A stretch of 63,223 nt of DNA from the NCBI GenBank assembly GCA_019661945.1, contig JAIFWI010000006.1:1-63223 (forward strand), written 5' to 3'. This DNA is from Candidatus Parcubacteria bacterium (GTDB taxonomy: Bacteria; Patescibacteriota; Minisyncoccia; Phycocordibacterales; JAKAEA01). This document shows, piece after piece, positions 8,213-62,347 of the stretch. Position 1 is the first letter of the stretch, and every line of letters begins with the position of its first letter. The notes beneath the pieces are model-generated. The model saw only the letters and a program-made list of their open reading frames with translations. It searched no databases and was not told the DNA's origin. Position numbers and translations under genes: made by a program.

Positions 8213-11200
8213 TTAGAGAGTATTATTACAATTACCGAAACCGGCTCGGACTTTATTGATGGCATCAATAGCGGTGTAGCCTGGTTTTTGGAGGCGTGCA
8301 TTAGCGATGAATGAATCAAATGATTGTTTGACGACATCTGGGTTTGGATGAGTGACCTTACACTCTCCCTCAACCTTGATGAGGTTTGTTGGAATTGAAG
8401 CTCCAGCTAAATCATTGTTTCTAAAGGTAACGTTACTCCAGGAATTTTTACCGGTTCTATCAGTACTGAGATTTTTGACAAGAAGCGGACGTGTCCAATC
8501 ATAGACAATGTTTCCGGAAACAATCATGTCATGAACACCAATAGCTTTTTCTTGGAATATGCCGTAGCCTGGTGCAAAGCTGAGCGCTGCTTGATCTTTA
8601 ATATCGACATTGTTGAAAGCAATAATGTTATTTGAGATTGTGGCGCTTAAAACATTGGCAATTTGTATGCCATATCCTCGCTGGCCATTTTCGGTCATAC
8701 TGCCGATATTTCTGGTGCCGATCATAACATTGCCTGATATTTTGCCAGTCACTCCACCAAGACTGATCGGGCCTTCACCATTGACCAAGCCGAAATCGAG
8801 ATGAATTGGATTGTTATAGAAGAAATTATTCTCGATCACTCCTCCAGAGCGCGCCTGAAGCCCATTATGCGCGGCATTAGCAAAAATATTATTTCGGACA
8901 ACGATATTTTTATTTTTGCCAGTGAGATAGACATTGTGGTCATGAACGGTGCCGCCTGAGCCATCAGCTTTTCGGCCGTTTTTGTCAAAAACGTTTCCCT
9001 CGATGAGGATACCATCAATGCCTGAAAAATATATACCATTCGGCGGATAGAGTTGTTTGTAATTTTCAACAATAACAGAATTGCGGACGGTTACATTTGG
9101 AATATAGCGCTGAAGTATTTCATCTGCATCTTCTTTTGTATGAATAGTAATGCCTTTTGAAAATTGTTCGATATAGCAGTCAATAACACTGATATATCCA
9201 GCATCGTTGCCAACGAGACCAACACCGGTTGAGCCGCTACCAAAAGGAGGTCGTTGAGTATCCTTAAGATGAACGCCAATAAGGGCAAAATATTTTGTGA
9301 CCTGATCAAGATAGACCGCGGTGCCGCCATTTATCTCTTCAATGATTGGCCGCTCACCCTCACCATATGCTCCAAGTACTAATGGTTTCTGAGCTGACTG
9401 ACCGCTTAACGGTTTATTATTTTCATCATAATTGTTAAAGGTAATCTTCCAGGTGTCGCCGCGCTTCAAGAGAATAAAGTTGTAGCCGCCCGTGTCAATT
9501 AATTTTTTAGCGGCCAGAAATGTTTTAACGGGCTCGGCTCGAGTGCCAGGATTGGTATCATCCCCTTCCGACCAAGAGACATGGATCACTTTACTAGTAC
9601 TGTCAGGAACATACGGAGAATTGCTGGTAGCTGGAGGATTATTTAGTGGAGGCAAAGGCTGAGATGGTGGCAGTGGAGTTGTAGTAATTGTTACTGACTT
9701 TACCTCACTTCCGCCTGCACCAGTACACGCTAAGGAATATGTTTGATTTGATGTTAACGGACCAACAGTTTGTGAACCTGATGTCGTCTTACTGCCTGAC
9801 CAGTTGCCACCTGCTGAACAACTAGTAGCGTTGGTGCTAGACCAGGTGATGCGAGCTGTTTGGCCTTTAGTAACACTTGCTGGAGCAGTCAGAGTTACTA
9901 CCGGTCGTGGAACTGTAACGGGCGGTTGAGTAACATTAGCATTTGTGACAGAGAAAGTAATAGTTGTCGGTGTACCGGCTATCATTCTGCCATTAACCTC
10001 TCTGCTTAATGTAGCAGTAAGTGTGTGTGTTCCATTGGTGAAAAATCCAGAAGGTAAGGAATTTAAATTTCCAGACGTATCACCTCCGAGAGAATAAGGG
10101 GCTGTTTCCTCTGTCCGATAATTGCTTTGGTTGTCATAGCCAAATTTAATATTAGAAAATCCAGATGAATTTGATACTTTTGCTTCAATATTTAGTTTTC
10201 GAGTCGTGAATTTTGAAAAATCAATAACTGCACCATTCCGTAATGGACTAAAGCCTGAAACTGCTGTATCAGTATCAGCATTCACTAAGATAAATGTAAT
10301 TGTGCCGGTAACTGGAGCCGGGGTAGGCGTAGCTGTAGGTCCGGGAGTAGCTATCGGTGGAGGAGTAGCTGTTGGTCTTGGAGTTGAGATTGGAGACTGA
10401 CTAGGTTGTGGTGATTGGGTTGAAATAGGAGCATTCTTGACTGAAAAGGTAATGACTTTAGGTGTTCCTGAGATCATCGAGCCATTAACATCTTTATGCG
10501 GTGTAACAGTCAGAGTATGTGTACCAGCAGTAAAAAATCCATCAGGCAATGGTACTAAATTGCCACTCACATCTCCGTACATTGAATATGGGTCAATAGC
10601 CTCGGTCCGATAATTATTCTGACCGTCATAGCCAAACTGAATATTTGATATACCATCCTGCGCATCAACAAAAGCTTGAATGGTAAGTTTCTTTGGTAAT
10701 GTCGCCAAATTTAATTCTGCTCCATCACGAAATGGATTAAATGTTGAAATCGGTGTATCAGTATCGGCATTGACCAAGGCAATATTTTCTACAGCAAAAC
10801 TATTGATAGTAAAGGCTGGACACTGAACCGTAATACTTTGGTTGCCTGATTGGACTTTAAGTGAGGCATTTTTTGAACCAGCGGTAATGTATTTCTTGGT
10901 GATTTGCCCTGATGAACCTGACAGCCCTTCTGAACCAGACCAGGTATATACCGGTGACTGAGTGGATCCAGCTGTTATCGTCGCTTTCCAGGTTACGGCA
11001 TCACCGACCTTTACTGGTGAAACAGGAGAAACGCTACAGCTTGCGGCAAGTGCAGTTTCATCAATGAGTTTAAGACGCAACGTCACTGTTGCACCAGCCG
11101 TACCCTTAAGACCTGTCAGCGGATATGGTTTTGCGGTAATAGTATGATCTCCAAGCGAAAGATTCCAGGCGTGAAAATCTGTGCCCGTATCTCCGGCGAA

Positions 11201-11575
11201 AGCAAAGGGCGCTGTGTTTTCGGTAATAAAACTTGGATTACCATCTAAACCGAAAATGACACTCTCTGTATTTAAAACATTAGCTCGAAGATTAAAATTC
11301 TTAGCTGGCAACAACGATCTGAGGTTGAGCGTAACGCTGCCTGTAAGATTTTCATAACCGACAATAGGAACATTGGTGTCGGCATTGATCAGCGCAAAAC
11401 TTGTTACAGATGCAGGGGAAGCTGTTGTAGACATAACCTGTGAAAGAAGTGAGGTCCGGCCGCCTGTCTCGGTATTAATAAACGGAATTGTAGATCCGAT
11501 AATTGCTATGCCGATAAGTGAAAGAACAGTTCCGATTATTTTTAAACGCATATATGAAAGTGTTATTAGGTACAC
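8213..11575 (-). CDS. Large secreted surface protein: three tandem ~150-aa beta-sandwich repeats, P/T-rich linkers, Ig-like modules and a C-terminal right-handed beta-helix
   Basis: 1120 aa with an N-terminal TM/signal. Three repeats start (F/I)(A/I)L(I/V)NADT(N/D)..; the last two then share motifs such as SNI(Q/K)FGYD..NYRTE and GTHTLT. PT-rich spacers. Tail carries NNIFANAAHNGLQARSGGVIENNFFYNN beta-helix-type repeats. Confidence 0.7.
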   Translation of the reverse strand: MYLITLSYMRLKIIGTVLSLIGIAIIGSTIPFINTETGGRTSLLSQVMSTTASPASVTSFALINADTNVPIVGYENLTGSVTLNLRSLLPAKNFNLRANVLNTESVIFGLDGNPSFITENTAPFAFAGDTGTDFHAWNLSLGDHTITAKPYPLTGLKGTAGATVTLRLKLIDETALAASCSVSPVSPVKVGDAVTWKATITAGSTQSPVYTWSGSEGLSGSSGQITKKYITAGSKNASLKVQSGNQSITVQCPAFTINSFAVENIALVNADTDTPISTFNPFRDGAELNLATLPKKLTIQAFVDAQDGISNIQFGYDGQNNYRTEAIDPYSMYGDVSGNLVPLPDGFFTAGTHTLTVTPHKDVNGSMISGTPKVITFSVKNAPISTQSPQPSQSPISTPRPTATPPPIATPGPTATPTPAPVTGTITFILVNADTDTAVSGFSPLRNGAVIDFSKFTTRKLNIEAKVSNSSGFSNIKFGYDNQSNYRTEETAPYSLGGDTSGNLNSLPSGFFTNGTHTLTATLSREVNGRMIAGTPTTITFSVTNANVTQPPVTVPRPVVTLTAPASVTKGQTARITWSSTNATSCSAGGNWSGSKTTSGSQTVGPLTSNQTYSLACTGAGGSEVKSVTITTTPLPPSQPLPPLNNPPATSNSPYVPDSTSKVIHVSWSEGDDTNPGTRAEPVKTFLAAKKLIDTGGYNFILLKRGDTWKITFNNYDENNKPLSGQSAQKPLVLGAYGEGERPIIEEINGGTAVYLDQVTKYFALIGVHLKDTQRPPFGSGSTGVGLVGNDAGYISVIDCYIEQFSKGITIHTKEDADEILQRYIPNVTVRNSVIVENYKQLYPPNGIYFSGIDGILIEGNVFDKNGRKADGSGGTVHDHNVYLTGKNKNIVVRNNIFANAAHNGLQARSGGVIENNFFYNNPIHLDFGLVNGEGPISLGGVTGKISGNVMIGTRNIGSMTENGQRGYGIQIANVLSATISNNIIAFNNVDIKDQAALSFAPGYGIFQEKAIGVHDMIVSGNIVYDWTRPLLVKNLSTDRTGKNSWSNVTFRNNDLAGASIPTNLIKVEGECKVTHPNPDVVKQSFDSFIANARLQKPGYTAIDAINKVRAGFGNCNNTL

Positions 11576-15271: not shown

Positions 15272-15658
15272 TCACGGGTTCGGGCCGACAGATGGCATCA
15301 TGCCCCGGACCAGCTTGTTTTGGTACGGTGTCTGCATGAGCCCGAGCCCGGTCTGGCGCCTACTCGTCGAGTATGACCTGCTTTTGGCCAGCTGCGGTAC
15401 GGGCTGACGGTACGACCCAGCGTAGTCAGGGTACCGGTCATATGCCGGCAGTGGCCGCTCCTCGTAGCTTGAACGGTAGTAGCGCCTCCGGCGATACTGC
15501 GGCGGGTACGGATTGTCCGACCATCGGTAGAGGCTGCGCCGATCGGGGTCAAACCGCGGCGGACGGTCTTGGTAGTACGACGGATGCGGACAATAGCAGC
15601 CCGCCTGAACAAAGGCCAGAACGAGAAGTATGGGCACGAGACAAAACTTGGCGAACAT
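15272..15658 (-). CDS. Small R/Y/P-rich lipoprotein, compositionally foreign (high GC)
   Basis: The internal start gives MFAKFCLVPILLVLAFVQAGC with a lipobox-like AGC. RBS AGGAG lies 7 nt upstream. 36/60 G+C at 15421-15480, against flanks below 40%. Confidence 0.6.
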   Translation of the reverse strand: MFAKFCLVPILLVLAFVQAGCYCPHPSYYQDRPPRFDPDRRSLYRWSDNPYPPQYRRRRYYRSSYEERPLPAYDRYPDYAGSYRQPVPQLAKSRSYSTSRRQTGLGLMQTPYQNKLVRGMMPSVGPNP

Positions 15659-18855: not shown

Positions 18856-18863
18856 AAAACAGC

Positions 18864-18888
18864 GGGCACCCCTTTTGAAGGGGTGCCC
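18864..18888. terminator. Bidirectional intrinsic terminator between ruvB and the high-GC ORF
   Basis: gggcacccc ttttgaa ggggtgccc, a perfect 9-bp stem with A/T runs on both sides. Confidence 0.7.
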
Positions 18889-18948
18889 AGGTACGCACTT
18901 GGCGTAAGCGTTGGAACTCTTGGTGAATGAACATGGGCCGCGGGGAGA

Positions 18949-19326
18949 TCAGGCGGGGACGAGATGCTCGCACTCGACACGGGTCTTGGCGTCGATGGTG
19001 ACGTTCAGCTCGCCGTTCGAGTGGATGAGTGCGCCGCGGAGGGTGTAGAAACCCCGCGGCAGCCCCTCGAGCTGTTCGGCGCCGGCGATGGTGGCGGGAC
19101 AATCCGGGATGGGCCCGGTACCGTACTCGGCGACCTGTCGACCCTGGGGAATCTCCGAATTGCAGAACCGGACGTCGGGGCCGTCGGCCGATGGCACGAT
19201 CTGGACCCGACCGATGTCGACACGGCTCTTCTCCCCGTGTTGGACGCCGGCCTCCTGGGCGGCGTAGTGAAGGGCTTCGGGCTGTTCAGAAGTACGCAAT
19301 TCGCGACGTGTGGGCGTGGAGCTCAT
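18949..19326 (-). CDS. Hypothetical protein, compositionally foreign (high GC)
   Basis: 125-aa ORF with RBS AAAGGA upstream of the ATG. 43/60 G+C at 19081-19140. No motif recognised. A mirror ORF on the + strand is judged to be a GC artefact. Confidence 0.5.
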   Translation of the reverse strand: MSSTPTRRELRTSEQPEALHYAAQEAGVQHGEKSRVDIGRVQIVPSADGPDVRFCNSEIPQGRQVAEYGTGPIPDCPATIAGAEQLEGLPRGFYTLRGALIHSNGELNVTIDAKTRVECEHLVPA

Positions 19327-19415
19327 GAGCAGATCCTTTCTCCAAGAGCGTTACCTTACCAAAGATTATACCTCTACCATAAAATTGTAAAGCATTAAGA
19401 TATATCCAAAGAGAA

Positions 19416-19439
19416 AGGGCGACACCGGAGTGTCGCCCT
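19416..19439. terminator. Intrinsic terminator hairpin downstream of the RTX-like ORF
   Basis: agggcgacac cgga gtgtcgccct, a perfect 10-bp stem flanked by T/A runs on both sides. Confidence 0.65.
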
Positions 19440-19489
19440 TCTTTTTTTACATAAAACAGATGTACAGATTACAGATGGGCCGATGTCGA

Positions 19490-20464
19490 TCAGCCCTTGG
19501 TCGGGGGCGGCAGCGTCGGCTCCGACCGCTTGGTCAGGATGTCGACGCTGGTGATGACGATGTTGACGAGGTCGGAGTCCTGGTTGTACCAGAGCTCGTT
19601 CTCGCCATCGCCGCCGTCGATCGTGCCGCGGGGGGTCAGGGGGCGCTGGCCGTCGTAGGGCCGACGGATCTCGAAGAGGTCGTAGTCCTCGCCGCCGACG
19701 AGGGTGTCGGTGCCAGCGCTGAGGTAGAAGTGGTTGTAGCCGTTTCCGCCCCGGACGATGTCGTCACCATCCTCGCCGCCCATGACGTCGCCGCCGTCGC
19801 CACCCTCGATGAGATCGTTGCCGGTCCCGCCGAAGATGAAGTCGTTGCCGGAGGCGCCGTAGAGCTTGTCGTTCCCGGAGCCGCCGTAGAGGTTTGCGTC
19901 GCCGGCGTCGTAGTCCGCGGGTTCGACCGCCCGAAGGATGTCGTTGCCGCTGCCACCGTCGGCGTAGGACCAGACGTCGGGTTCGACGTACTCGCCCCGC
20001 GGGATGTAGACCTGCGGGGCGTCCATGTAGATGGTGTCGCTGCCCGAGCCGCCGTTGACGGACACAGACATCGAACCCTGGACGCTCCGCGGGTCGGTGA
20101 TGAGCACCGCCCCCGCCACCTTCTTGAAGGTGATGGTGTCGTTGCCGCCCTGCCCGGTGATGTAGACCGAGTTGTAGCTCCCGGTCAGGCGCGTGTTGTC
20201 CACCAGCACTTTGTTCACCTCGCGCTTCAGCGCGAGCTGGGGGCCCTTGCGGCCCATGCTCAGGGTGAGCGTGATCTTCTCGGCCGCGGACGTGCCGACG
20301 ATCGAGAGATTGGTCCAGAGCTTGTGGTCGTCCATGACCTGGACGTTGGTGTCGATGCTCAAGGGCGCCGGCGGTGCCGCTGCCATGAGCTGCCTCGACT
20401 CGAGGCCCTCGATGAGGGCGCGCTGGATACAGGCGGTACGACGGGAAAAGATGCTACGCAGCAT
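19490..20464 (-). CDS. Secreted RTX/hemolysin-type calcium-binding repeat protein, compositionally foreign (high GC)
   Basis: 324 aa. Tandem GGxGxD nonapeptides (GGSGNDKLYGASGNDFIFGGTGNDLIEGGDGGDVMGGEDGDD). The N-terminal IEGLESRQLMAA leader is of the LExRxLL type common in planctomycete secreted proteins. 41/60 G+C at 19501-19560. Confidence 0.75.
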   Translation of the reverse strand: MLRSIFSRRTACIQRALIEGLESRQLMAAAPPAPLSIDTNVQVMDDHKLWTNLSIVGTSAAEKITLTLSMGRKGPQLALKREVNKVLVDNTRLTGSYNSVYITGQGGNDTITFKKVAGAVLITDPRSVQGSMSVSVNGGSGSDTIYMDAPQVYIPRGEYVEPDVWSYADGGSGNDILRAVEPADYDAGDANLYGGSGNDKLYGASGNDFIFGGTGNDLIEGGDGGDVMGGEDGDDIVRGGNGYNHFYLSAGTDTLVGGEDYDLFEIRRPYDGQRPLTPRGTIDGGDGENELWYNQDSDLVNIVITSVDILTKRSEPTLPPPTKG

Positions 20465-20564
20465 GGGATGCTCCTTCTCTGTATGGCTACATAGGCGTAG
20501 CCGAGCCAGATTCAGTTCTAAGGCAACCTTCCAAGGCAGCCCTATACCAAATCTTCTGATGGGT

Positions 20565-20593
20565 ATATTATCATATTACTTTACTTTTGTCAA
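20565..20593 (-). promoter_or_regulatory. Sigma70-like promoter upstream of the RTX-like ORF
   Basis: The reverse strand has TTGACA (20588-20593), a 17-nt spacer and TAATAT (20565-20570). RBS GAAGGAG precedes the ATG at 20464. Confidence 0.5.
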
Positions 20594-20815
20594 TATATGT
20601 TTAGTGGTAATCCTGCTTGTGGTTTTTTATGAGTTCAGCTTGTTCAATAGCCTCCTTGGGAGTGTATTCACCTGTTCGCAGGCGCCGACGAATATCATGA
20701 AGTGCCTCTACTTACCCATCATTTGCACCCATGGTCTGGACAACATTTATAGTGTTTAAAACAAAGTTCTCCGGATCTCCAACATTTAGTCCTCCTTCAA
20801 AAGTATTGAGTTTCA

Positions 20816-21193
20816 TTAGATGAGACCAGTGAAATAACTACGGGTAAAAAATGCTATAACAAATCCAATGGCTACAGCCAGTACAAATATTCCAAATGTT
20901 TTAAGACTTTTTATGCGAGAGAGTTCTCGGACAACCAGTCCGCCAATCGGAGCGAGGATAACATATGGCAAGGCCGTAGTGGCAAATCCAAAGCCGCTAA
21001 ATTGTTTGCCGTAGCTGGTGAGGCCCATGAGATCACCGGCAAGTTTTGTGCCGTAATCAATGACATCTTTCGGACCAAAGAAAACCATCAATCCGATGAC
21101 AAAACCAAATGCCAGATTAGTAATAATATTTAAAAGATTTGTGCCCTGATTCATTCCTGGCATTCCGCCCATACCATTTTGAAAAGGATTCAT
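20816..21193 (-). CDS. Hypothetical multi-pass membrane protein
   Basis: 125 aa. G/M/N-rich N-terminus followed by 3-4 hydrophobic helices. Confidence 0.55.
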   Translation of the reverse strand: MNPFQNGMGGMPGMNQGTNLLNIITNLAFGFVIGLMVFFGPKDVIDYGTKLAGDLMGLTSYGKQFSGFGFATTALPYVILAPIGGLVVRELSRIKSLKTFGIFVLAVAIGFVIAFFTRSYFTGLI

Positions 21194-21234
21194 ATGCGCT
21201 CAATAATACACCTGATTAATACTTATGGACAGGC

Positions 21235-21648
21235 TTAGAACTTGTTTCTTCTCTTCTGTCCTCTTTTGATCTGGAAATGATAGTAGAAAAATATAATTAC
21301 TGAAAAACAGAATGTTAAAAGATATACCAAATTCATTGAAAAAGAAATTGCATACCGTAGTAAATTCATTCCCACAAAGAAAACAATCGTAAATCCAATA
21401 ATTTTGTTGAGCGGGTATAATAATCCAATTGGAGATGAATCTAAGGCCCTCTTTGCATTCCGTATCTGTATATATCTTCCAACTAAAATTGCAGAAAAAA
21501 ATATAATGTATATTAATAAGAGTGGGGCCCATGAAAACCTTCCCCACACATCAGTAAGTGTGGCAGAAATAACCAACATGATTACTAATGCAGCGCCGAG
21601 AATAGATACTAACAAAAGAAAAATAATCCTTAACAATGATTTGATCAC
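21235..21648 (-). CDS. Hypothetical multi-pass membrane protein
   Basis: 137 aa with four hydrophobic segments. The overlapping 115-aa ORF (21200..21547) is judged spurious. Confidence 0.55.
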   Translation of the reverse strand: MIKSLLRIIFLLLVSILGAALVIMLVISATLTDVWGRFSWAPLLLIYIIFFSAILVGRYIQIRNAKRALDSSPIGLLYPLNKIIGFTIVFFVGMNLLRYAISFSMNLVYLLTFCFSVIIFFYYHFQIKRGQKRRNKF

Positions 21649-21690
21649 GTTAATACAATTATACTATACCTCAACTATATAGGTAACTAT

Positions 21691-21720
21691 GGTTGGGTCG
21701 GCAGGTGTTAGGGGTCAGGT
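21691..21720 (-). repeat. Array element E1 (divergent copy)
   Basis: The + strand ggttgggtcggcaggtgttaggggtcaggt shares the TTGGGTCGGCAGGTG half with E2-E6. Confidence 0.5.
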
Positions 21721-21741
21721 ATGCTCTATAGAATAAATATC

Positions 21742-22080
21742 TTAAACTTTTGGATGTTTTGCTAAATCATCTAAATAGGCATTGTTTGCCTCAAGTTTAG
21801 ATCGGGCAGATTCTACTTCTGTTGTTTTATTGTGAAGTTCTTCTTTCAGTGCAATAGTCTTTTTCTGAATACGTGAAATGAGAAAGCTTCTGCGTATTGC
21901 ACTTGGAATTGAAACCAGTACCCCAATCAAAATTCCGGTGACTACTGCCGCTATAAGTATTATCGCCAACGATCCGTCAATCTGCCAAGCCAAAAATGTC
22001 ACCGTTATAACCGTGATATTTTGTAAAGCAAAGATTACTGCAAACCCTCCAAGCACCAAACCAATTAAAAGAAATATCAT
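21742..22080 (-). CDS. LapA-domain (DUF1049-like) membrane protein with coiled-coil tail
   Basis: 112 aa. GGFAVIFALQNITVITVTFLAWQIDGSLAIILIAAVVTGILIG matches the two-helix LapA-domain pattern. Confidence 0.55.
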   Translation of the reverse strand: MIFLLIGLVLGGFAVIFALQNITVITVTFLAWQIDGSLAIILIAAVVTGILIGVLVSIPSAIRRSFLISRIQKKTIALKEELHNKTTEVESARSKLEANNAYLDDLAKHPKV

Positions 22081-22120
22081 AACTCATTGTATCACATAGT
22101 AGTTCGAATTCCTTTAGATA

Positions 22121-22154
22121 TGTCGGCAGGTAGATAGTGTTAGAACCTATTTTG
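22121..22154 (-). repeat. Array element E2
   Basis: The + strand is tgtcggcaggtagatagtgttagaacctattttg. It begins directly after the stop of the upstream cassette gene. Confidence 0.6.
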
Positions 22155-23063
22155 CTATTTTCTGATTTTAAAAGACTTACTAAATGCCTGAACAATTGGT
22201 GTTCTATCCTCACTTAGTCCATCCGCTTCATCAATACGAATTTGGTATTGGTCAAATAATTTGCTTGAATCTAAATTAAAATTACTTGTACCGTCACGGA
22301 GTGGTATTTCTCTTGGGTCAAGATACCATGAGAAACGTCCATCACTTGCCTTAACTGATTTTCCACCATTCAACACTATTAGGTTGGTGTAACCATTAGA
22401 ATCTGTGCCCACAATATATATTTGGACCTCCTTCATCCCCTTTGATTGCCACTCGATACTATTCGCTGAATCTACCCGCCATACTTGCCCGGCTTGAGGT
22501 GAAGTAATAGAAATAGAAATTAAATCAGATCTATACCTCAAGGTAAAAACAGCATCGGAGTTACTACAAATATATTGTCCTGTATTTTGTATATCGCCAC
22601 AAACATAAGCAATGTATTTAATATCGGCCATTAATAAAGGACTGTTTTTTACAATATCAGAATGAGTTAAGATGACAGCTCCCCTGTCAACACCGCCATC
22701 CGAAAGAGATTTTGAGATATACGTTGGGGCTTCTTCAAAATTATATCTTTGTACAAAATCATATTGCTTTACAACGATTTGTGGATTTACGAGTGTAACG
22801 TTTGAAAACCATTCAAATTGCATGTGAAAGAAACCATCATCATTTATCGTATAGCTTTCTTCGCCATCTGGTAAACTGACTTTTATTGATGGCAAGGTAG
22901 TAGCAGTCGGAGTATTTGTAGCATTTTTATTAACTGCCTCAGTCTGCAATAATTGATCTGATTTTGTCTTTGCGCCCAGGTAATAGATACTTCCACCTAT
23001 AGTTAGAACTGCAATTAGTAAAAAAACAAGCAGAGGAGTAAAACCTCTTTGTGAGTTTTTCAT
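22155..23063 (-). CDS. Hypothetical secreted/anchored protein
   Basis: Start moved to MKNSQRGFTPLLVFLLIAVLTIGG. This is a pilin-like GFxP(L/I)L anchor without the Glu5 of true pilins. The rest looks beta-rich. Confidence 0.6.
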   Translation of the reverse strand: MKNSQRGFTPLLVFLLIAVLTIGGSIYYLGAKTKSDQLLQTEAVNKNATNTPTATTLPSIKVSLPDGEESYTINDDGFFHMQFEWFSNVTLVNPQIVVKQYDFVQRYNFEEAPTYISKSLSDGGVDRGAVILTHSDIVKNSPLLMADIKYIAYVCGDIQNTGQYICSNSDAVFTLRYRSDLISISITSPQAGQVWRVDSANSIEWQSKGMKEVQIYIVGTDSNGYTNLIVLNGGKSVKASDGRFSWYLDPREIPLRDGTSNFNLDSSKLFDQYQIRIDEADGLSEDRTPIVQAFSKSFKIRK

Positions 23064-23102
23064 ATTGAGATAATTATACCCCATAATTAAATGAGTATAT
23101 AG

Positions 23103-23144
23103 ATGGGCTTGGTTGGGAGCTGGACGGGCTTAGAACCTGTTTTG
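23103..23144 (-). repeat. Array element E3
   Basis: The + strand is atgggcttggttgggagctggacgggcttagaacctgttttg, nearly identical to E6. Confidence 0.7.
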
Positions 23145-23147
23145 TAT

Positions 23148-23577
23148 AAAAAAATAGGCCCCGCTCGTTATTACAAGCGGGGCACCTGGTCAAGCCAGGA
23201 TTTTCGAAAGAACCTTCAGAAAGAGCTGCCGAACTTGTGAGGCGAAGATCCAAGACCTCACCAAGTTCAAAGGGTTGTCCAGAGGGACTGCGTGTCCCTT
23301 GTCGTGTCTATGATTTATTCGGAAGCTAACCCTTCCTAATACCGCCGATAAATCACAGAAACCTAGGCCTGATTGAGAAATAGACAGGCTTTTGCAGATA
23401 ATCAACCAAACTCTGCAGAAGCAATGGATAACCACGATCTTCGCACTTACTTATATCCTCTTCACTGATTAATCATCCATTACAATTCACCAGTGACACA
23501 AATGAGGGGCGAAGAGTCAGACTAGAACCGAACCGGTGCCAGGACCCGCTGACCGAGGGATACCTGCACTGAGCTGT
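23148..23577 (-). ncRNA. Candidate ~430-nt structured non-coding RNA of unknown class
   Basis: Bounded by a consensus promoter and an intrinsic terminator (GCCCCGCUUG UAAUAA CGAGCGGGGC followed by a 7-U run at 23148-23154). The only ORF (81 aa, 23190..23435) is Cys/Leu/Ser-rich and looks like junk. Many local and long-range complementary segments are visible by eye. Confidence 0.6.
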
Positions 23578-23582
23578 GATAG

Positions 23583-23610
23583 ATTATAGCACAGTCATAA
23601 TATTTGTCAA
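23583..23610 (-). promoter_or_regulatory. Consensus sigma70 promoter driving the candidate ncRNA
   Basis: The reverse strand has TTGACA (23605-23610), a 16-nt spacer and TATAAT (23583-23588). Confidence 0.65.
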
Positions 23611-23658
23611 CCTTTTTAGTGTAGTATTAAGAAATACGGCTCAATAGAGCCTTCCATT

Positions 23659-23696
23659 CGCTGGGTCGGGAGATGAACAGAATTAGAACCTACCAG
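23659..23696 (-). repeat. Array element E4
   Basis: The + strand is cgctgggtcgggagatgaacagaattagaacctaccagg. Confidence 0.6.
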
Positions 23697-23746
23697 GTAT
23701 AAATAAAAAAACTTTCGCCTGTTGAGCAAAAGTCTTTGTTTCGTGG

Positions 23747-24280
23747 TTACCTCCGAATCCTACCGTGGTTGAGCATGAAGTCAGGTGGAAAACGGAAAAT
23801 GTCGAGGTCCAACTTCGTTGTTATGCGCTTCCCCTGTTCGTCCACCGTAACTTCAGTCTCCTTGACAACGGCATCGATGATCACACGCCGCATCACTCCA
23901 AAAAATGATTCGATGACCCCATTGATCGTCTCTGATTCTGGCTCTGTATCACTTTCAATAAAGCCCGTAACAAACTCATAATCAGAAAAGGGTTCTTCCT
24001 GACCATCAATGTGATACCAGATCGTGTGCACGATCTCAGATTCAGCACTAGAACCACCTGTAGTGATCTTCCTGCGGCTTGAAGTTGCATTGAAGTCTAG
24101 TGTCACAAAGGGTCGGAAGGCAATGTATCCCACAGCTGCCACACGATCATGGATGTCGAACACGAGCTCCTCTACCCTGCCCTTCTTCTTATTGAGAGAT
24201 TCGAGCAGATGATGCAGCCTAACCGCTCTAGCAAGCCAAGGATCCTTACGGACAAGAGCAATGAACTTGTTCCAGTTCAT
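23747..24280 (-). CDS. Orphan cytosolic protein (177 aa from ATG 24280; 197 aa if the duplicated ATG at 24340 is used)
   Basis: Clean ORF with RBS GAAAGGAA 4 nt upstream of the ATG, and its own promoter (TTGACT..TATAAA at about 24408-24435). A hairpin plus T-run follows at about 23705-23740. No TM segments or known motifs. Confidence 0.65.
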   Translation of the reverse strand: MNWNKFIALVRKDPWLARAVRLHHLLESLNKKKGRVEELVFDIHDRVAAVGYIAFRPFVTLDFNATSSRRKITTGGSSAESEIVHTIWYHIDGQEEPFSDYEFVTGFIESDTEPESETINGVIESFFGVMRRVIIDAVVKETEVTVDEQGKRITTKLDLDIFRFPPDFMLNHGRIRR

Positions 24281-24390
24281 ATCATTCCTTTCTACCCTAT
24301 AGGTAGATGCGGGAATTGGATCTATCAGAGTCCAGTTCATATCATTCCTTTCTACCCTATAGGTAGATGCGGGAATTGGATCTATCAGAG
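24271..24390. repeat. Perfect 2 x 60-bp tandem duplication covering the 5' UTR, RBS and start codon
   Basis: 24271-24330 and 24331-24390 are identical (tccagttcatatcattcctttctaccctataggtagatgcgggaattggatctatcagag). Confidence 0.95.
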
Positions 24391-24443
24391 TCTGACTCTG
24401 ATTTCTGAAGTGTTTATACCATTATCTGCACAATAGTCAATGT

Positions 24444-24480
24444 CTTGGTCGGCACGTGGACACCGTTAGAACCTGTTTTT
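24444..24480 (-). repeat. Array element E5
   Basis: The + strand is cttggtcggcacgtggacaccgttagaacctgttttt. Confidence 0.65.
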
Positions 24481-24496
24481 AAGATTCCAAGCAGAT

Positions 24497-25045
24497 TTAT
24501 TCTGAAACAAATGAAGACTTTCTTAGTATTAGCTGTACCTCCTTTTGATTGGCATTAACAAATTGAATTTGCCAAATTATATCTGGTCTATAGTAATATC
24601 TACCAATTTTAACTAAGGTTGGTTCTGGGTCTACAGCTTCAGGGAATCGATTAGTTATCTCGCCTCTACCTATAAGTGTTTGTTCACAATGAGCATTTCC
24701 GCAATATCCAGCTTTATAAGCCATAATAAGTTTTCTACAATTGGACTGATTAGTAATTTTCCACCCAAGATTCAATCCCTCAACCGCAAAATTTCCATCT
24801 TTGTCTGTAATTGTTTTGATATTATCACCGTATTGAACCTTTCTAATATCCCCTCCAAAACCTGGCGTTGTACATGAATATTCAATTTCAACTGTTACAT
24901 CTTGTATTCCATTACCACTAATATCAACTATACGACCAGATGTTTCTGAAAAAGAAATATATTTTGGAATACCTAAAAAGACATAGAGACTAATACCTGC
25001 AACTATTACAATAATAATACTAATTATTAAAGAAAATACTTTCAT
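24497..25045 (-). CDS. Membrane-anchored protein with a carboxypeptidase-regulatory-like beta-sandwich
   Basis: Start moved to MKVFSLIISIIIVIV. GRIVDISGNGIQDVTVEI...TDKDGNFAVEGL resembles the CarboxypepD_reg fold signature. Confidence 0.55.
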   Translation of the reverse strand: MKVFSLIISIIIVIVAGISLYVFLGIPKYISFSETSGRIVDISGNGIQDVTVEIEYSCTTPGFGGDIRKVQYGDNIKTITDKDGNFAVEGLNLGWKITNQSNCRKLIMAYKAGYCGNAHCEQTLIGRGEITNRFPEAVDPEPTLVKIGRYYYRPDIIWQIQFVNANQKEVQLILRKSSFVSE

Positions 25046-25068
25046 ATTGCATCCATTGTACCACAAAG

Positions 25069-25108
25069 GATGGGCTTGGGTCGGGAGCTGGACAGGCTTA
25101 GAACCTAT
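25069..25108 (-). repeat. Array element E6
   Basis: The + strand is gatgggcttgggtcgggagctggacaggcttagaacctat. The reverse strand forms the T-arm-like hairpin AUAGG UUCUAAG CCUGU. Confidence 0.7.
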
Positions 25109-25112
25109 ATAT

Positions 25113-26273
25113 CTATTCAGTAACAGTGAAATCTACCGCCTTGCTCTCAACCGCATGTCTGATTAGGTATATCTTATATTTTCCTGGCACTACCGTAAAA
25201 TTAGATTTGCAATACCAATCGATATTGTATATACAGAGACTCGATTTTATATTTACCTTGGCAAGCGAAGCTGTACTTCTTGGTTCAGGAAATAACATAC
25301 CCTTTTCACCCTTAACATTTTCAATGATAATAATGAAATCACTTACATCTCCACCGAAATTCTTACCCCTAAGCTCTATGTATGTACCAATCTTTCCGTG
25401 ATCTGGAGAAACACTGTTTATGACAGGATCATTAGCTTTACCAGGGAAAGTCTGAGGATATTCATCAAGCGCATTCAAATTAAATGTCTTCTCGGTAGTT
25501 TCTGGCTTTGGAGTGGTCAGTTTTAAAGTAACCTCATTTTCATTTTTCCAACCAATGACATCAACCCCTCCGCCATATTGGAATGTAAGTGGAATAAACT
25601 TTAATGTTTTAAAATCATAAACCCAACCAAAATCATGAGCGGCATTTCGTACAGAGAAAGCAACTTTTGAACCATTAGGTGAAAACTGTACATCTTTAAA
25701 TTCTGCATCTCTACCTGCTTCAAATACAGTATCTTTTTGAACAACCATCGCTGGAATGTTCTGAGTCGATATTACTTTATTATCAATTGATATTTGTTTT
25801 TTATTCCAAGAGACTCCGGTATGCTTAAACGTTGAGAAAATTTTATTAATTATTATTGTATCCTCTGAAGTGCGCGCTACCATATCAAATCCAATATTGT
25901 AAGAAGGATCATATGCTGACTTTAAAAAAATAAACATATCTTCTTTCCATTCAGTATTTTCTTTATTATGTGGATTAGTATTTATACTAATACCGTTATA
26001 TGGGGAATCCGACTCTTTAACTGGGAAATTAATGTCTTCTATAGTTACATACGATTCATCACTATATACAGCTCTCCAATTCGGTGGAGCCTTAATACTG
26101 TAACCATACTTATCATTTCTGTATATCTTCCAACTTGCAGTTTCATCAAGTGCTTCCTGTGGTGCATTGATCTGACTTTGTAAAAAATAGTACCCGCCAC
26201 CGACAAGTACAACTACTAATAAAATAAGCAGGATGGGAGCAAAACCCTTTTTAGCATTTTTCATATTATTCAT
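25113..26273 (-). CDS. Hypothetical secreted/anchored protein with a C-terminal IPT/TIG-like domain
   Basis: 386 aa. KKGFAPILLILLVVVLVGGG anchor, and a C-terminal PVINSVSPDHGKIGTYIELRGKNFGG. Confidence 0.6.
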   Translation of the reverse strand: MNNMKNAKKGFAPILLILLVVVLVGGGYYFLQSQINAPQEALDETASWKIYRNDKYGYSIKAPPNWRAVYSDESYVTIEDINFPVKESDSPYNGISINTNPHNKENTEWKEDMFIFLKSAYDPSYNIGFDMVARTSEDTIIINKIFSTFKHTGVSWNKKQISIDNKVISTQNIPAMVVQKDTVFEAGRDAEFKDVQFSPNGSKVAFSVRNAAHDFGWVYDFKTLKFIPLTFQYGGGVDVIGWKNENEVTLKLTTPKPETTEKTFNLNALDEYPQTFPGKANDPVINSVSPDHGKIGTYIELRGKNFGGDVSDFIIIIENVKGEKGMLFPEPRSTASLAKVNIKSSLCIYNIDWYCKSNFTVVPGKYKIYLIRHAVESKAVDFTVTE

Positions 26274-26424
26274 ATTGTCTCACTAAAATCTAAACACAGC
26301 CATTCGGCTGTGCACAGGTTCGAGTCCCGCAATGGGGTGCCTACTGGGATTCGAACCGATGGAAAGATTAGACAAAAAGGATACTGTTGGTAGGATAAAG
26401 GCAACTCATTTAATATATACGAGC

Positions 26425-41633: not shown

Positions 41634-42617
41634 TTACTCCTCGGCATTGAAGGTAATAGTTACCTGTCGATTACTATATTGTAAAAGTTTTGCTGGGTTT
41701 GTGGCTTTTGCTCCAATCAGTGATCTACCTGTCTCAGTACCCGTATGGCGTAAGATAATCGAGCTGTCCTGCTCGGATGCCGCTGTATTATTGACGCGCC
41801 AATCAAAGGTAAGAGTAGAAAGATCGTGAGGAACGGCCGTGCTGAAGAAATAAGGTGCTGCTTTTAGCCATATTTCTTCATTTAGTAGGTTAATAGTCTG
41901 ACCTAAGGCTCGATGATAGAGTGGTCCGTAAAGTGGAGCCTCTTCGTATAAAACAATTTCAGGTGATTGCGGTGTTAAGACCACCCGGCCAGTACCTAAA
42001 GTCTTACCACTCTGTGAACTAACAGTGACTATCACTTCTATGGCTCTCAATACTACCCCACTTGTTACGGTCATTGAATCTTTGCCAAAGCCTGAAGCTT
42101 CTCGCACATTTTGGCCATTGACTTTCCAAGCATAGATTAGATTTTTTGGGCTTAGGCGAGTACCGTTTTCATAAAAATTTGACATAGCTACGACAGTAGC
42201 TTCTCCTTGAAATGGATACAGGGCCTTACCTCGGTAAAACGGCGGGGTATATGACTTTGCCTCCCAAATGAGATCAACTGTTCCCGGATTAATAACCTGG
42301 CTTACTTCATAGTCTTTACCATCAGCAGTAACAGCCACTACTCGAATGGATGTTTGTGAACCCTCCCGAGCAGCTGTGGTCTTAAAGCTTGTCTTGCCCT
42401 TACCGCTTGAGACTTCCGAACCATTAACAAGCCAGGTAATATCTGAGCGATTGAGATCAATAGCACCGCTCAAGACCGTAAAGCTTACACTTTGCCCTGG
42501 CTGAGGGTATTGAGGACTGAAGCGAAGAGATAATGTTGTATCAGGAAGCTGGGCAAAGACAGCCATGGGAAGATATAGTCCAAGCCCACATACTATATAA
42601 TAGAGAACCTTCTTCAT
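41634..42617 (-). CDS. Secreted Ig-like repeat protein
   Basis: 327 aa with a signal peptide ending AVFAQ. Beta-sandwich-like repeats. Confidence 0.5.
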   Translation of the reverse strand: MKKVLYYIVCGLGLYLPMAVFAQLPDTTLSLRFSPQYPQPGQSVSFTVLSGAIDLNRSDITWLVNGSEVSSGKGKTSFKTTAAREGSQTSIRVVAVTADGKDYEVSQVINPGTVDLIWEAKSYTPPFYRGKALYPFQGEATVVAMSNFYENGTRLSPKNLIYAWKVNGQNVREASGFGKDSMTVTSGVVLRAIEVIVTVSSQSGKTLGTGRVVLTPQSPEIVLYEEAPLYGPLYHRALGQTINLLNEEIWLKAAPYFFSTAVPHDLSTLTFDWRVNNTAASEQDSSIILRHTGTETGRSLIGAKATNPAKLLQYSNRQVTITFNAEE

Positions 42618-42641
42618 GGTATTAGTATACTATATGTTGAG

Positions 42642-43085
42642 TTAGGCTGCCTGTCGGTATTCTGACTCCTCTTCAGCATATTCCTCTTCTTCCTGCTGCT
42701 CTTGTTCTCGCATCTGGCGCATCCATAATGCTCTTTGGATTCGTTGTTCTTCCTCCTGTGAGGCAGCTTCGGCAGTTTCTTTTCCCTGAATTTTCATCTG
42801 GCGTTTTTTTTCGGAGCGAAAAATAAGTTCACTTGATATAAATTGCCAAGGAATGAAACTCAATGGCCAAATCCATGACAAAATAGTTGCAATGGCAGTA
42901 AGAACAATAACCTTCCAATCTTTAAGAAGGTGTAGGTAGCGCTTAATGCCGAGGTAGGCTTGATAGATCCAAAATATACCACTAAATAAAATTCCAGCCA
43001 CAGGTATCCAGCTCAAGACCCAAGCTAACCCAGATGCTATCCTTGAGTTTCGTCGATCACGTTTCAATGTATCTAGCTTATCCAT
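42642..43085 (-). CDS. Small 3-TM protein with an E/Q-rich tail
   Basis: 147 aa. Its start overlaps the VirB4-like stop by 1 nt (TAATG). Confidence 0.5.
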   Translation of the reverse strand: MDKLDTLKRDRRNSRIASGLAWVLSWIPVAGILFSGIFWIYQAYLGIKRYLHLLKDWKVIVLTAIATILSWIWPLSFIPWQFISSELIFRSEKKRQMKIQGKETAEAASQEEEQRIQRALWMRQMREQEQQEEEEYAEEESEYRQAA

Positions 43086-44896
43086 TAGGTTTGCCTACGT
43101 AGGTCCTCCTTTGCTTTTTTAATGGCTAGAATCTGCGAAGGATCTGACGTAATGATTTGATCTTCAGTATACGAAGCAATAACTTTAATAGCAACGTGTT
43201 TCACTCCGGCAAAGAAGATGCCCTCCCCTACATCGGACTCAAGGAGCAAATATTTTTCTTCATCAGTTAAGTTAAATGTTTGTTGAAGTTTATCAATTGA
43301 CGAGGGTGATTGTTTTAAGAGGACTTGAATTGAGGAGTTGGTAATAATCGGTAGGCCGTAGGGCGATTTCAAAAAGTCTTCAACGTCTTGAGTAATAGTA
43401 GATAATCCCAAGTAATATTTTCGTCCACGCTTTGCTAAGCCAAGCAAGAATGAGGCAGTATCTTCCGATTTCATCATCCACCAAGCTTCATCGATCACCA
43501 ACAGACGTTTCTTGATATTTTTACGAACAACATTCCAGATATAGTGAGTAACAATGTACATTGCAATTGGCTTCAATTCATCTTCCATATCACGAACAGA
43601 AAAGACAACAAACTTTTTATTCATGTCGACGTTTGTCGGCCGATTGATAAAACCGGCCCAGGTGCCTTTGGTATATTTGGTCAATCGTTGTGCCAATGAT
43701 TCCCCACCCTCCATACCTGCCAGTACCAATTCAAAATCAGAAAGGAGGGGTGGTTCAATGTTTGAGAAATCATTTTCAGGCGTAATATCTTTAAGAGCAT
43801 ATGTCTCTGTAATAGCTCGATCGATGATAGCATCTTCTTCTGGAGTAATTCCTCCAAGCATAATCCGAAAGAGACCGACTAGGTTAATAATATTTGAGCG
43901 TAAGACACTTGCCGGTGATTCATCTTCCTGAATGGGCGGCAAATCGAAAGGATTAATATGGTGTTCGGAATTAAGAGAAATATTAAAGTACCGGCCGCCG
44001 GTGGCTTCGGCCAGATATTCATACTCGCGTTCCGGATCAATGACAATGACTTCAGTATCAAACATAAGCGTTCTTAAAATCTCGAGCTTTGTTGTATATG
44101 ATTTTCCTGAGCCGGATTTTGCCAATGTTACTGAATTGTAGTTTTCAAGTGAGAAACGATCAAAAAGCACAAGACTTGAATTGTGGCGATTGATACCATA
44201 CAAAATTCCTTTATCAGAGGTTAAATCGAAAGAAATAAAGGGAAAAATACTTGAAAGTGGTGTCGAGTTTATTTTTGAATTCACCGACAACTCGTCATTT
44301 CCAAGAGGAATAACACTCTTAAAGCCTTGTTCTTGCTGGAAAAGTGCCGGCTTTACGTAGACCAGTTTTGATTCAAGAATCGATTTAATTTCTGATTCAA
44401 CCTTATCGAGTTCAGCATCAGTCTCACCATAAATTGAAATATAGAGGCCGACGTCAAATAATTTTTCCTGAGCTTGCTGAAGATTGTCGCGAAGGGTTTC
44501 TAGATCTTGGTAGGCAGTATCGAGAACTGGATCACGCACAAGACCCTTATCTTCCCTGATGCTGATCTGGCTTTGAATTTCAGCTACTTTCTTTTGAAAA
44601 TGACGGAGAATTGTTGCTGTATCAATTGGGTGAATGAAAATAGAAATATCAAAAATCTTGTCGAGATTGATGATTGGTGAGAACCAATTTTCGGACAAAA
44701 AACGTGGATACGAAATGACAAAGAAGGTCCTGACAATCTTATCACCCAAGTTCAGTGAACGTGGAGTGACTTTCAAAGCTGACGGAGCAATGATATCTTT
44801 AAGTTCAAGTGTAGCGGCTTGATAGACATCCTGAGGCAAGACTGTTGTATTCTCATCCTCTTTCTTATTCTTTTGTAGAAAACTAAATAATCCCAT
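43085..44896 (-). CDS. virB4: VirB4/TrbE/TrsE-family type IV secretion ATPase
   Basis: 603 aa. Walker A LAKSGSGKSYTTK and Walker B RLLVIDEAWWMM. The N-terminal domain pattern is typical of Gram-positive-type VirB4. Confidence 0.85.
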   Translation of the reverse strand: MGLFSFLQKNKKEDENTTVLPQDVYQAATLELKDIIAPSALKVTPRSLNLGDKIVRTFFVISYPRFLSENWFSPIINLDKIFDISIFIHPIDTATILRHFQKKVAEIQSQISIREDKGLVRDPVLDTAYQDLETLRDNLQQAQEKLFDVGLYISIYGETDAELDKVESEIKSILESKLVYVKPALFQQEQGFKSVIPLGNDELSVNSKINSTPLSSIFPFISFDLTSDKGILYGINRHNSSLVLFDRFSLENYNSVTLAKSGSGKSYTTKLEILRTLMFDTEVIVIDPEREYEYLAEATGGRYFNISLNSEHHINPFDLPPIQEDESPASVLRSNIINLVGLFRIMLGGITPEEDAIIDRAITETYALKDITPENDFSNIEPPLLSDFELVLAGMEGGESLAQRLTKYTKGTWAGFINRPTNVDMNKKFVVFSVRDMEDELKPIAMYIVTHYIWNVVRKNIKKRLLVIDEAWWMMKSEDTASFLLGLAKRGRKYYLGLSTITQDVEDFLKSPYGLPIITNSSIQVLLKQSPSSIDKLQQTFNLTDEEKYLLLESDVGEGIFFAGVKHVAIKVIASYTEDQIITSDPSQILAIKKAKEDLRRQT

Positions 44897-44905
44897 ACAA
44901 TATTA

Positions 44906-45541: not shown

Positions 45542-45545
45542 ATGA

Positions 45546-45977: not shown

Positions 45978-45982
45978 AACCT

Positions 45983-46753: not shown

Positions 46754-46758
46754 ATATT

Positions 46759-49443: not shown

Positions 49444-49444
49444 A

Positions 49445-62179: not shown

Positions 62180-62347
62180 ATGAAAGCCACTTTGCCGGAC
62201 AGCGATTCTGTTCGCCTGAACTGTGCGGAGTCGACTGAACAGGACCCACACAAGCCTCAGCCGCCCGCCCCACGTCAACCCGAGCAGTCAACGTCGCCGC
62301 GCCAGCTACACGTCAACGACGCCTGGCTCCCGCAAGTCGAGAACTGA
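62180..62347 (+). CDS. Small hypothetical Pro/Gln-rich protein, compositionally foreign (high GC)
   Basis: 55 aa from MKATLPDSDS. RBS GGAGG (62170-62174) lies 5 nt upstream. 40/60 G+C at 62221-62280. Its short length makes coding status uncertain. Confidence 0.4.
   Translation: MKATLPDSDSVRLNCAESTEQDPHKPQPPAPRQPEQSTSPRQLHVNDAWLPQVEN

Follow-up and report, generated by a model that had tools for sequence, protein, structure and literature searches.

Introduction

Planctomycetes have a cell-surface or export signal of their own, the motif family PF07595 (Planc_extracel), whose consensus RRLxxExLExRxLLA is set out in a proteome study of Tuwongella (PMC8567305). Phage morons are independent promoter-gene-terminator units of deviant composition that spread horizontally (PMC3594210). 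In a survey of groundwater metagenome-assembled genomes (MAGs), recent transfers into Patescibacteria from other phyla were rare and their donors often unrecovered; most of the transfers in that survey ran from one patescibacterium to another, at 4-35% divergence, and no Planctomycetota donor is listed (PMC12455944). Here we describe B2, a gene that encodes a calcium-binding RTX repeat protein with a planctomycete-type leader and lies in a 63-kb stretch of DNA (contig JAIFWI010000006.1, the whole of which we call the window) from an ultra-small soil bacterium of the Patescibacteria, class Paceibacteria.

B2 was almost certainly acquired horizontally. In the explanation that we prefer and consider likely, a soil Paceibacteria lineage obtained it from a high-GC bacterium, and it now stands as an intact monocistronic gene at the edge of a lineage-specific genomic island. 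The gene itself is of a familiar type and encodes an RTX beta-roll protein behind a planctomycete-type leader; the event is an ordinary one, and it is the setting that is of interest. Almost nothing is known of the hosts on which soil Patescibacteria depend, and it is seldom that a recent transfer from another phylum into one of their streamlined genomes is caught; a surface-protein gene of planctomycete type that sits un-ameliorated on a Paceibacteria chromosome offers a concrete lead to a physical partner, be it donor or host. B2 is also a test case for whether a foreign export signal and extreme codon usage can work in a candidate phyla radiation (CPR) cell.

B2 is an intact gene of foreign composition

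A sharp change in composition sets B2 apart from its surroundings: G+C in 100-nucleotide (nt) windows runs from 0.59 to 0.73 across 19450-20450, compared with 41.6% (0.416) for the whole window, and our recount of positions 19501-19560, for which the original prediction had given 41 G+C out of 60, returned the same figure. The fraction of G+C at third codon positions (GC3) is 0.92 for B2 and 0.346 ± 0.060 (range 0.18-0.52) for 53 host genes (z = 9.7). Codon choice is inverted between the two, with GAC making up 90% of Asp codons in B2 and 23% in the host, AAC 94% and 24% of Asn codons, ATC 100% and 20% of Ile codons, and AAG 90% and 31% of Lys codons. B2 stops at TGA, as do just 2 of the 53 host genes (39 use TAA and 12 TAG). 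The comparison of codon use with the rest of the genome that had been suggested as a check, made here with 53 host genes, thus finds B2 compositionally foreign, 9.7 standard deviations above the host mean in GC3, and the switch in composition falls within 55 nt of the ends of the open reading frame (ORF). A 354-aa ORF on the plus strand is an antisense shadow of B2; its G+C fraction at first codon positions, 0.88, mirrors the GC3 of B2.

B2 is a genuine, intact, monocistronic gene (Table 1), whose parts would follow one another as a sigma-70-like promoter, a structured leader of ~93 nt, a GGAG ribosome-binding site, an ORF of 324 codons and a hairpin terminator. The promoter-like site named in the original prediction (TTGACA, 17 nt, TAATAT) is present at 20593-20565, though sites of this kind occur here at chance frequency; with a TG upstream of its -10 box and 10 of 12 consensus matches, it is a plausible candidate and a statistically unexceptional one. 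The leader predicted to follow it would measure ~93 nt rather than ~95 nt, and a Shine-Dalgarno sequence, GGAG, lies at 20474-20471, 6 nt ahead of the ATG. Promoter and leader together are AT-rich (G+C 0.42 over 20465-20600) and come directly after a small ORF of host-like GC. No Rfam family matches the leader; a riboswitch or small RNA in the leader or elsewhere in the block formed by B2 and its downstream neighbor B1 was rejected, the only Rfam matches being sub-threshold ones that overlap the terminator (CC3552, 32 vs 50 bits).

The terminator, predicted as a perfect 10-bp hairpin, is indeed perfect and slightly longer, with a stem of 11 bp; it ends B2 and precedes the B1 promoter. On the plus-strand side it carries a long T-run, whereas on the B2 strand the tail reads TTTCTCTTT and an A-tract stands before the hairpin; flanked in this way by an A-tract and a T-tract, the hairpin is therefore bidirectional in form. 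Directly ahead of the B2 promoter lies a small ORF (20601-20816, minus strand) that runs over 70 codons in one frame, interrupted by an in-frame TAA at codon 35; it is either a pseudogene or two mini-ORFs.

Protein architecture and probable role of B2

The tandem GGxGxD RTX repeats of the original prediction are confirmed by a match to the Pfam family HemolysinCabind (PF00353) at E = 3.6e-17 and 62.4 bits, well above the cut-off of 23. Five of the units are strict (at residues 138, 170, 194, 212 and 221), and about twelve are counted when the pattern is relaxed (relaxed positions 104, 203, 230, 239, 257 and 284); repeats with a 27-nt period underlie the region in the DNA. When the sequences of solved structures were searched with B2, the RTX domain of CyaA came first (4.6e-20), followed by lipases and serralysins.

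Ahead of the repeats lies the planctomycete-style motif, RALIEGLESRQLMAA, which matches PF07595 over residues 15-31. Its place is the correct one and its E-value is 1.6e-4, but its score of 21.6 bits is below the Pfam gathering cut-off of 25.5 bits. Compared by eye with the consensus, 7 of the 9 specified positions agree. Studholme et al. 2004 is reportedly the source for this planctomycete motif (RRLxxExLExRxLLA, PF07595). We compared the window with 80 related Patescibacteria loci, 3428 ORFs in all, and among these B2 alone has the pattern E.[LIVM]E.R.[LIVM][LIVMF] near its N-terminus; no ORF of the Patescibacteria loci has two or more RTX units.

A single-sequence structural model of B2 was poor, and we used an AlphaFold2 model built from an alignment of eleven relatives of the same architecture, with a mean predicted local distance difference test score (pLDDT) of 70.7. 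In this model the N-terminus, motif included, is disordered; a seven-strand beta domain occupies residues ~36-118 (pLDDT 73-90), for which Foldseek found no specific fold match in the Protein Data Bank; and residues ~167-266 form a beta-roll of short strands with a 9-residue period (pLDDT 84-92). The top Foldseek match of the beta-roll is again the CyaA RTX domain, with a match probability of 0.98 but low TM-scores (0.2-0.3). After the last repeats come ~58 residues at pLDDT 31-78, and no profile exists by which C-terminal secretion signals could be scored.

The product, of ~34 kDa, would thus combine an export or cell-surface motif, an all-beta domain of ~80 residues, an RTX beta-roll and a short C-terminal region, and the roll would fold upon binding Ca2+ outside the cell. 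Because no catalytic, toxin or pore-forming domain was detected in B2, its most likely role would be that of a Ca2+-dependent surface or adhesion protein. Export by the patescibacterium is uncertain and is the weak link of this proposed function, since Patescibacteria are not known to have an outer membrane, and the Pfam survey of the window found no type I secretion genes.

Search for a donor

The taxonomic best hits of B2, to which the original prediction had looked for a decision, are not from Patescibacteria among those that carry names; they belong to Alphaproteobacteria and Planctomycetota. In nine of the top 120 matches, LExRxLL near the N-terminus goes together with a 'GxLxIxGTxxxDxIxV' segment and with RTX repeats, and the two LExRxLL-plus-RTX relatives with names are both Planctomycetota. 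The best relatives with the full architecture are 27-34% identical to B2; one of them, P0120, aligns to residues 5-265 at 32% identity. The contigs of two architecture relatives were read and have G+C of 0.58 and 0.65. Where the gene neighborhoods of two architecture relatives were examined, they were uninformative on taxonomy.

Broader searches returned little beyond the repeats. A word-indexed search of 5.8e9 proteins gave only RTX-repeat matches, the best with 40% identity over 39% of B2, and HMMER, run exhaustively on 1.84e9 representative proteins with residues 1-175 as the query (E <= 0.001), recovered B2 and nothing else. Neither the JGI metagenome contigs nor IMG/VR has a match to the B2 N-terminus or to B1; plasmids match the B2 repeat region only, at 67-69%, and phage records give no DNA match. 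In the account that we prefer, the donor was a high-GC bacterium, most probably one of the Planctomycetota or else of another group with the same architecture in its secreted proteins; a planctomycete-like donor is our best guess and not a demonstrated fact.

B1 and B2 occupy the edge of a lineage-specific island

The gene content of the window (dnaA, dnaN, ruvA, ruvB, ruvC, polA, tsaE, and type IV pilus and peptidoglycan enzyme genes are all present) is that of an ordinary Patescibacteria chromosome, and its RuvB is 75% identical to those of Minisyncoccia/Paceibacteria MAGs. At least 17 related loci share the gene order PolA-TsaE-PilB-RuvB-(YebC)-RuvC-TyrRS-PBP1, and in these relatives ruvB is separated from yebC/ruvC by 0-1 kb in most cases. 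In the window the distance is 7.5 kb: RuvB ends at 18855 (stop codon 18853-18855) and the YebC ORF starts at 26332. The DNA between them is absent at the same site in the relatives and forms a lineage-specific island. B1 and B2 fill the 1.75 kb of this island nearest to ruvB, its high-GC end; the rest resembles the host in GC, and its genes specify small proteins of the membrane or secreted type. Both flanks are collinear with the relatives, and no homologue of B1 or B2 is encoded in the 80 related loci.

Neither boundary of the island has an integrase, a transposase, a tRNA target or flanking direct repeats, and no PHROG family matches any of 9 island proteins. The route of entry was probably uptake of foreign DNA followed by illegitimate recombination, which we propose because integrase, transposase and flanking repeats are missing. 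Other mechanisms were considered and rejected: a diversity-generating retroelement target, because the window has no second copy of any part of 18856-20600, the Pfam survey found no reverse transcriptase domain and there is no adenine specificity; an integron cassette with attC, because the hairpins are only terminator-like and there is no integrase; and a prophage or strict moron, because there is no PHROG match, no phage DNA match and no relative in IMG/VR.

Fragments of the block in other soils

Words of the block were found in three soil metagenomes from two studies (runs X1, X2 and X3), each match being a 151-nt unitig of depth 2 and thus effectively one DNA fragment. Fragments of B1 that are 100% identical to the window cover 18954-19104 (X3) and 19127-19275 (X2), 300 nt in total; those of B2 cover 19682-19832 and 19804-19954 (both X1), 273 nt, and are probably two mates of one fragment. 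Variants occur as well. An X2 fragment at 19462-19612 is identical over the 3' untranslated region and the last 16 codons of B2 and then diverges, with 12 mismatches and 92% identity overall; of the 9 mismatches listed, 8 lie at the first or second position of a codon, within residues ~298-309, which may reflect diversifying selection at the B2 C-terminus, although a near-saturated GC3 limits synonymous change. An X3 fragment at 19227-19369 shows no difference from the window over B1 codons 18-34 or over the 37 nt of AT-rich leader (19333-19369) that reach up to the -10 box; the intervening 57 nt have diverged strongly and carry a 6-nt in-frame insertion. That B2 occurs in a 92% variant and B1 in a mosaic one means that the block has already diversified within the carrying population.

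Since the X3 fragment comes from an independent data set, the joining of a GC-rich ORF to an AT-rich leader is real biology. The validation of the assembly that the original prediction had called for is to this extent provided, in that the join of B1 to its AT-rich leader is found in an independent soil read, but the junctions of B2 itself are spanned by no read. The proposal that B2 was wired to a local promoter is not supported as stated: in the same fragment, from another sample, the AT-rich leader of B1 travels with B1, and promoter and gene may therefore move together.

X2 and X3 also hold fragments of the remaining window. Three of them are 100% identical (9220-9370, 9436-9586 and 9844-9994) and lie inside the gene of a 1120-aa surface protein, and another is 95% identical (9352-9499); polA fragments are at 83-91%, and fragments of a ComM-like gene at 90-94%. 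The rest of the window has matches of only 80-86% in the soil runs, to conserved genes. The relatives of window genes in X2 and X3 show that a host relative is present there, so that these soils do not carry B1/B2 without one; the fragments are most simply read as those of a relative that inhabits the X2 and X3 soils and carries the block too. A host relative and the block in the same soils support true integration, and a host relative that carries the block implies that the acquisition predates some strain divergence. The patches of 100% identity against a background of 90-94% are a hint that the block and the surface-protein segment have recently been exchanged.

The surface-protein gene just mentioned (8213-11575, minus strand) encodes a large secreted protein with repeated ~150-aa modules, Pro/Thr linkers, a beta-helix-like C-terminus and no Pfam match; the full identity of its middle part (9220-9994) in three X2 and X3 fragments, beside housekeeping fragments at only 83-94% in the same runs, suggests that related strains have lately exchanged segments of their surface proteins.

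As for timing, the original view of B2 as a very recent cross-phylum acquisition is plausible: the foreign composition and the Planctomycetota-type architecture speak for it, and the "very recent" part has indirect support from a GC3 without amelioration and from the 100% fragments, qualified by the B2 and B1 variants that already exist. The suggestion that the gene came from a host is speculative.

B1 and the other GC-rich units

The window contains five GC-rich single-gene units (A, B1, B2, C and D; Table 1), each with a TTGAC(A/T) or TTTACA -35 box, a Shine-Dalgarno sequence, an ORF and a hairpin, and four of the five stop at TGA. B1 has no homologue in the 5.8e9 proteins and no Pfam or PHROG match. 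Units C and D match neither Rfam nor Pfam, and unit C is a complete orphan; structured RNA was rejected as the cause of the other GC islands, there being no Rfam match.

Unit A is a lipoprotein gene, with a signal peptide and a lipobox Cys, in the conserved slot between tsaE and pilB. In five relatives this slot likewise holds a lipoprotein gene, with GC3 of 0.49-0.73 (at least 0.57 in four of them) between flanking genes at ~0.3-0.35. No homology is detectable among the six slot lipoproteins, and the slot houses either a hyper-divergent gene or one that has been repeatedly replaced; the pattern suggests places where small surface-protein genes get replaced.

Weighing the explanations

A number of observations count against a transfer of B2 from a high-GC bacterium into this lineage as a working gene. 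No donor or close homologue of B2 was found in any collection searched, and a planctomycete origin is argued from a sub-cut-off motif and an architecture shared at about 30% identity. A high GC does not by itself make a gene foreign in this clade, as the GC-rich lipoprotein gene of the tsaE-pilB slot in the window and in five relatives makes clear. Consensus promoter sites are not enriched in the region, 3 having been found where 2.2 are expected from shuffled sequence. Inspection of the B2 N-terminus shows neither a classical hydrophobic Sec core nor a Tat h-region, and no ABC exporter, HlyD or TolC/OEP was found in the 63 kb by a Pfam survey that covered ORFs of at least 150 aa and some shorter ones and left several large window ORFs without any Pfam match. 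Finally, no read was found that spans the outer junctions (about 18856, and 20560-20620), no sequencing run is listed that matches either 10-kb flank or the B2 5' junction, look-ups of the exact proteins of B1, B2, RuvB and the gene downstream gave no record, and the sample of origin was not found.

The lack of spanning reads at both outer junctions and of located source reads would also fit an assembly chimera, in which a 1.75-kb high-GC block from another soil organism was spliced into the contig, as would the presence in X1 of a B2 fragment without a near-identical fragment of the remaining window. We consider such a chimera very improbable: an internal insertion requires two false joins, correctly ordered; the changes in composition coincide with gene boundaries, with an AT-rich spacer that holds a terminator and a promoter between two GC-rich ORFs; the junction of GC-rich ORF and AT-rich leader is present in an independent data set; three other GC-rich cassettes of like anatomy stand elsewhere in the contig; and X2 and X3 hold host-gene relatives as well. 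If the clade keeps small secreted-protein genes at high GC, B2 could instead be a native, fast-evolving, GC-rich surface gene, as the mutually non-homologous lipoprotein genes of the tsaE-pilB slot (GC3 0.74 here and 0.49-0.73 in five relatives) and the complete orphans B1 and ORF 58777-59100 might suggest; however, the GC3 of B2 is far above that of the slot genes, outside B2 neither RTX repeats nor LExRxLL were found among the ORFs of the window and the Patescibacteria loci, all named matches are from high-GC phyla, and the entire ruvB-yebC island is missing from the relatives, which together make a native origin improbable in our judgment.

Two further possibilities concern what was transferred and whether it works, and each of them is, to our mind, doubtful. 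One is that what moves is the entire cassette, from promoter and leader through ORF to terminator, and that related soil Patescibacteria pass it around as phages do their morons, so that the control regions would not be local. The X3 read, with its two identical parts (B1 codons 18-34; 37 nt of leader) and the diverged stretch between them, argues for it, as do the 100% identity of B1/B2 fragments where housekeeping fragments reach only 83-94%, and the same promoter-Shine-Dalgarno-GC-rich ORF-hairpin anatomy at no fewer than four other places in the window (15272-15658, 18949-19326, 58777-59100 and 62180-62347, i.e. at least 4). Yet the evidence consists of a handful of single DNA fragments from runs that were picked for containing words of the block, with the ascertainment bias that this brings; the surface-protein segment 9220-9994, of ordinary GC, is likewise 100% identical, and the patchiness may be strain recombination; and there is no mobility gene, terminal repeat or PHROG match. 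The other is that B2 is passenger DNA, integrated but functionless in its recipient because it is not exported or is poorly translated, and destined to decay. The absence of a recognizable Sec or Tat signal and of type I secretion genes and the extreme codon mismatch with the host point this way, and ORF 20601-20816 with its in-frame TAA shows that decay occurs in the island; against this, the 324 codons are intact and have a good Shine-Dalgarno sequence, promoter and terminator, and related alleles persist in other soils with 8 of 9 listed differences at codon positions 1 or 2, unlike neutral decay (with the same limit that high GC3 sets on synonymous change).

We therefore keep to the likely account of an intact gene acquired from a high-GC bacterium. 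A bolder version, which we think unlikely, has this Paceibacteria lineage repeatedly capturing single ORFs from high-GC neighbors, possibly its own (planctomycete?) host, expressing them in compact promoter-leader-terminator slots and passing the cassettes among related soil Patescibacteria. It is raised by the five cassettes, the non-homologous slot lipoproteins and the B1/B2 fragments at 100% beside housekeeping fragments at 83-94%. If repeated capture were true, captured genes could reveal the hosts of uncultured CPR bacteria, and the cassette pattern, if general, would describe how reduced genomes sample new surface proteins.

Neighboring features

The 7.5-kb island has a sequence motif of its own: AGGTTCTAAGCCTGTCCAGCTCCCGACCCA (minus-strand reading), ~30 nt long, occurs in six copies that are confined to the island (Table 1), and the copies examined stand after a terminator and ~20-30 nt ahead of the -10-like box of a minus-strand gene. 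The motif may be a shared promoter or operator, perhaps of a type like that of extracytoplasmic function sigma factors (GGTTC-N16-CGAC); B1 and B2 are without it. Also in the island, a perfect 60-nt tandem duplication at 24271-24390 lies across the start of a 197-aa ORF (23747-24340).

Farther away, at 41634-51223 (minus strand), a run of genes surrounds a VirB4/TraG-like ATPase (43085-44896); it includes proteins of 894, 327, 256 and 211 aa without a Pfam match and also encodes a surface Ig-like / F5-F8 type C protein. The run may specify a type IV secretion-like or DNA-transfer apparatus, which would be relevant to the entry of foreign DNA.

Table 1. Coordinates of B2, B1, the island and related features (window positions, except in the last row)
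Feature	Position	Strand	Basis and remarks
B2 ORF (unit B2), 324 aa, ATG start, TGA stop	19490..20464	-	ORF list, composition; GC 0.66, GC3 0.92
B2 promoter-like site, sigma-70-type: -35 TTGACA 20593-20588, 17-nt spacer, -10 TAATAT 20570-20565	20565..20593	-	consensus match
B2 5' leader, ~93 nt, GC 0.51 (intermediate)	20465..20558	-	two predicted hairpins, minimum free energy -34.6 kcal/mol, z = -2.2
N-terminal motif RALIEGLESRQLMAAAP, residues 15-31, planctomycete cell-surface / export-type	20372..20422	-	PF07595, sub-cut-off
N-terminal all-beta domain, residues ~36-118, 'xLxIxGTxxxxIxL ... GGNDTI' pattern common to planctomycete-type relatives	20111..20359	-	alignment to P0120; model
RTX nonapeptide repeats, residues ~138-266, tandem 194-247, predicted Ca2+-binding parallel beta-roll	19667..20053	-	Pfam, model
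C-terminal beta-strand region and Pro-rich tail, residues 267-324	19493..19666	-	model; the 92%-identical X2 variant diverges here
Hairpin terminator, perfect 11-bp stem, 4-nt loop	19415..19440	.	z = -3.3; 0/200 shuffles fold as well
B1 ORF (unit B1), 125 aa, TGA stop, directly downstream of B2	18949..19326	-	ORF list, composition; GC 0.66, GC3 0.79
B1 promoter and leader: TTTACA 19391-19386, 15 nt, TATAAT 19370-19365, GGAGA 19343-19339	19327..19391	-	19333-19369 also in the independent X3 soil read
B1 intrinsic terminator, 12 pairs, T-run	18863..18889	-	tail abuts ruvB stop codon 18853-18855
Lineage-specific island, 7.5 kb, between ruvB and yebC	18856..26331	- (all genes)	comparison with relatives
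Copies of the ~30-nt motif	21214-21244, 22119-22149, 23109-23139, 23662-23692, 24445-24475, 25077-25107	- (read)	six copies
Unit A	15272-15658	-	GC3 0.74
Unit C, 107 aa, TTGACT promoter-like site, Shine-Dalgarno sequence, perfect hairpin terminator	58777-59100	-	GC3 0.82
Unit D, 55 aa, TTGACT promoter-like site, Shine-Dalgarno sequence, perfect hairpin terminator	62180-62347	+	GC3 0.70
tsaE-pilB slot lipoprotein genes in related loci	L014 7250-7690; L006 5671-6081; L002 7419-7847; L012 7237-7800; L007 7103-7507		related loci

Comparison with known systems

Like the RTX beta-roll proteins of family PF00353 (serralysin-family proteases, lipases and CyaA of Bordetella), B2 has tandem GGxGxDxUx repeats and a predicted parallel beta-roll. 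It differs from them in having no catalytic, pore-forming or acylation domain and only 324 aa, in its planctomycete-type N-terminal motif, in the absence of ABC/MFP/TolC genes nearby and in a carrier presumably without an outer membrane; nor is a type I C-terminal secretion signal demonstrable in B2. In layout B2 resembles the planctomycete cell-surface proteins with PF07595, in that its motif is followed by a 'GxLxIxGT...' beta segment and then by RTX repeats, as in the relatives P0120, P0083, P0081, P0031, P0039 and P0117. The coding GC of B2 is high, as it is in these relatives, whereas its score with the family profile is below the cut-off, identity reaches at most 34%, and B2 sits in a Patescibacteria chromosome whose flanking genes and synteny are those of Paceibacteria.

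With phage morons B2 shares the character of an autonomous unit, with what appear to be its own promoter and terminator and a composition that contrasts with its neighbors, but it lies outside any prophage. Finally, like the transfers of the groundwater survey (PMC12455944), B2 is a single-gene acquisition in a genomic island of a streamlined genome; what distinguishes it from them is a composition that is wholly un-ameliorated and a product that is a planctomycete-type RTX protein.

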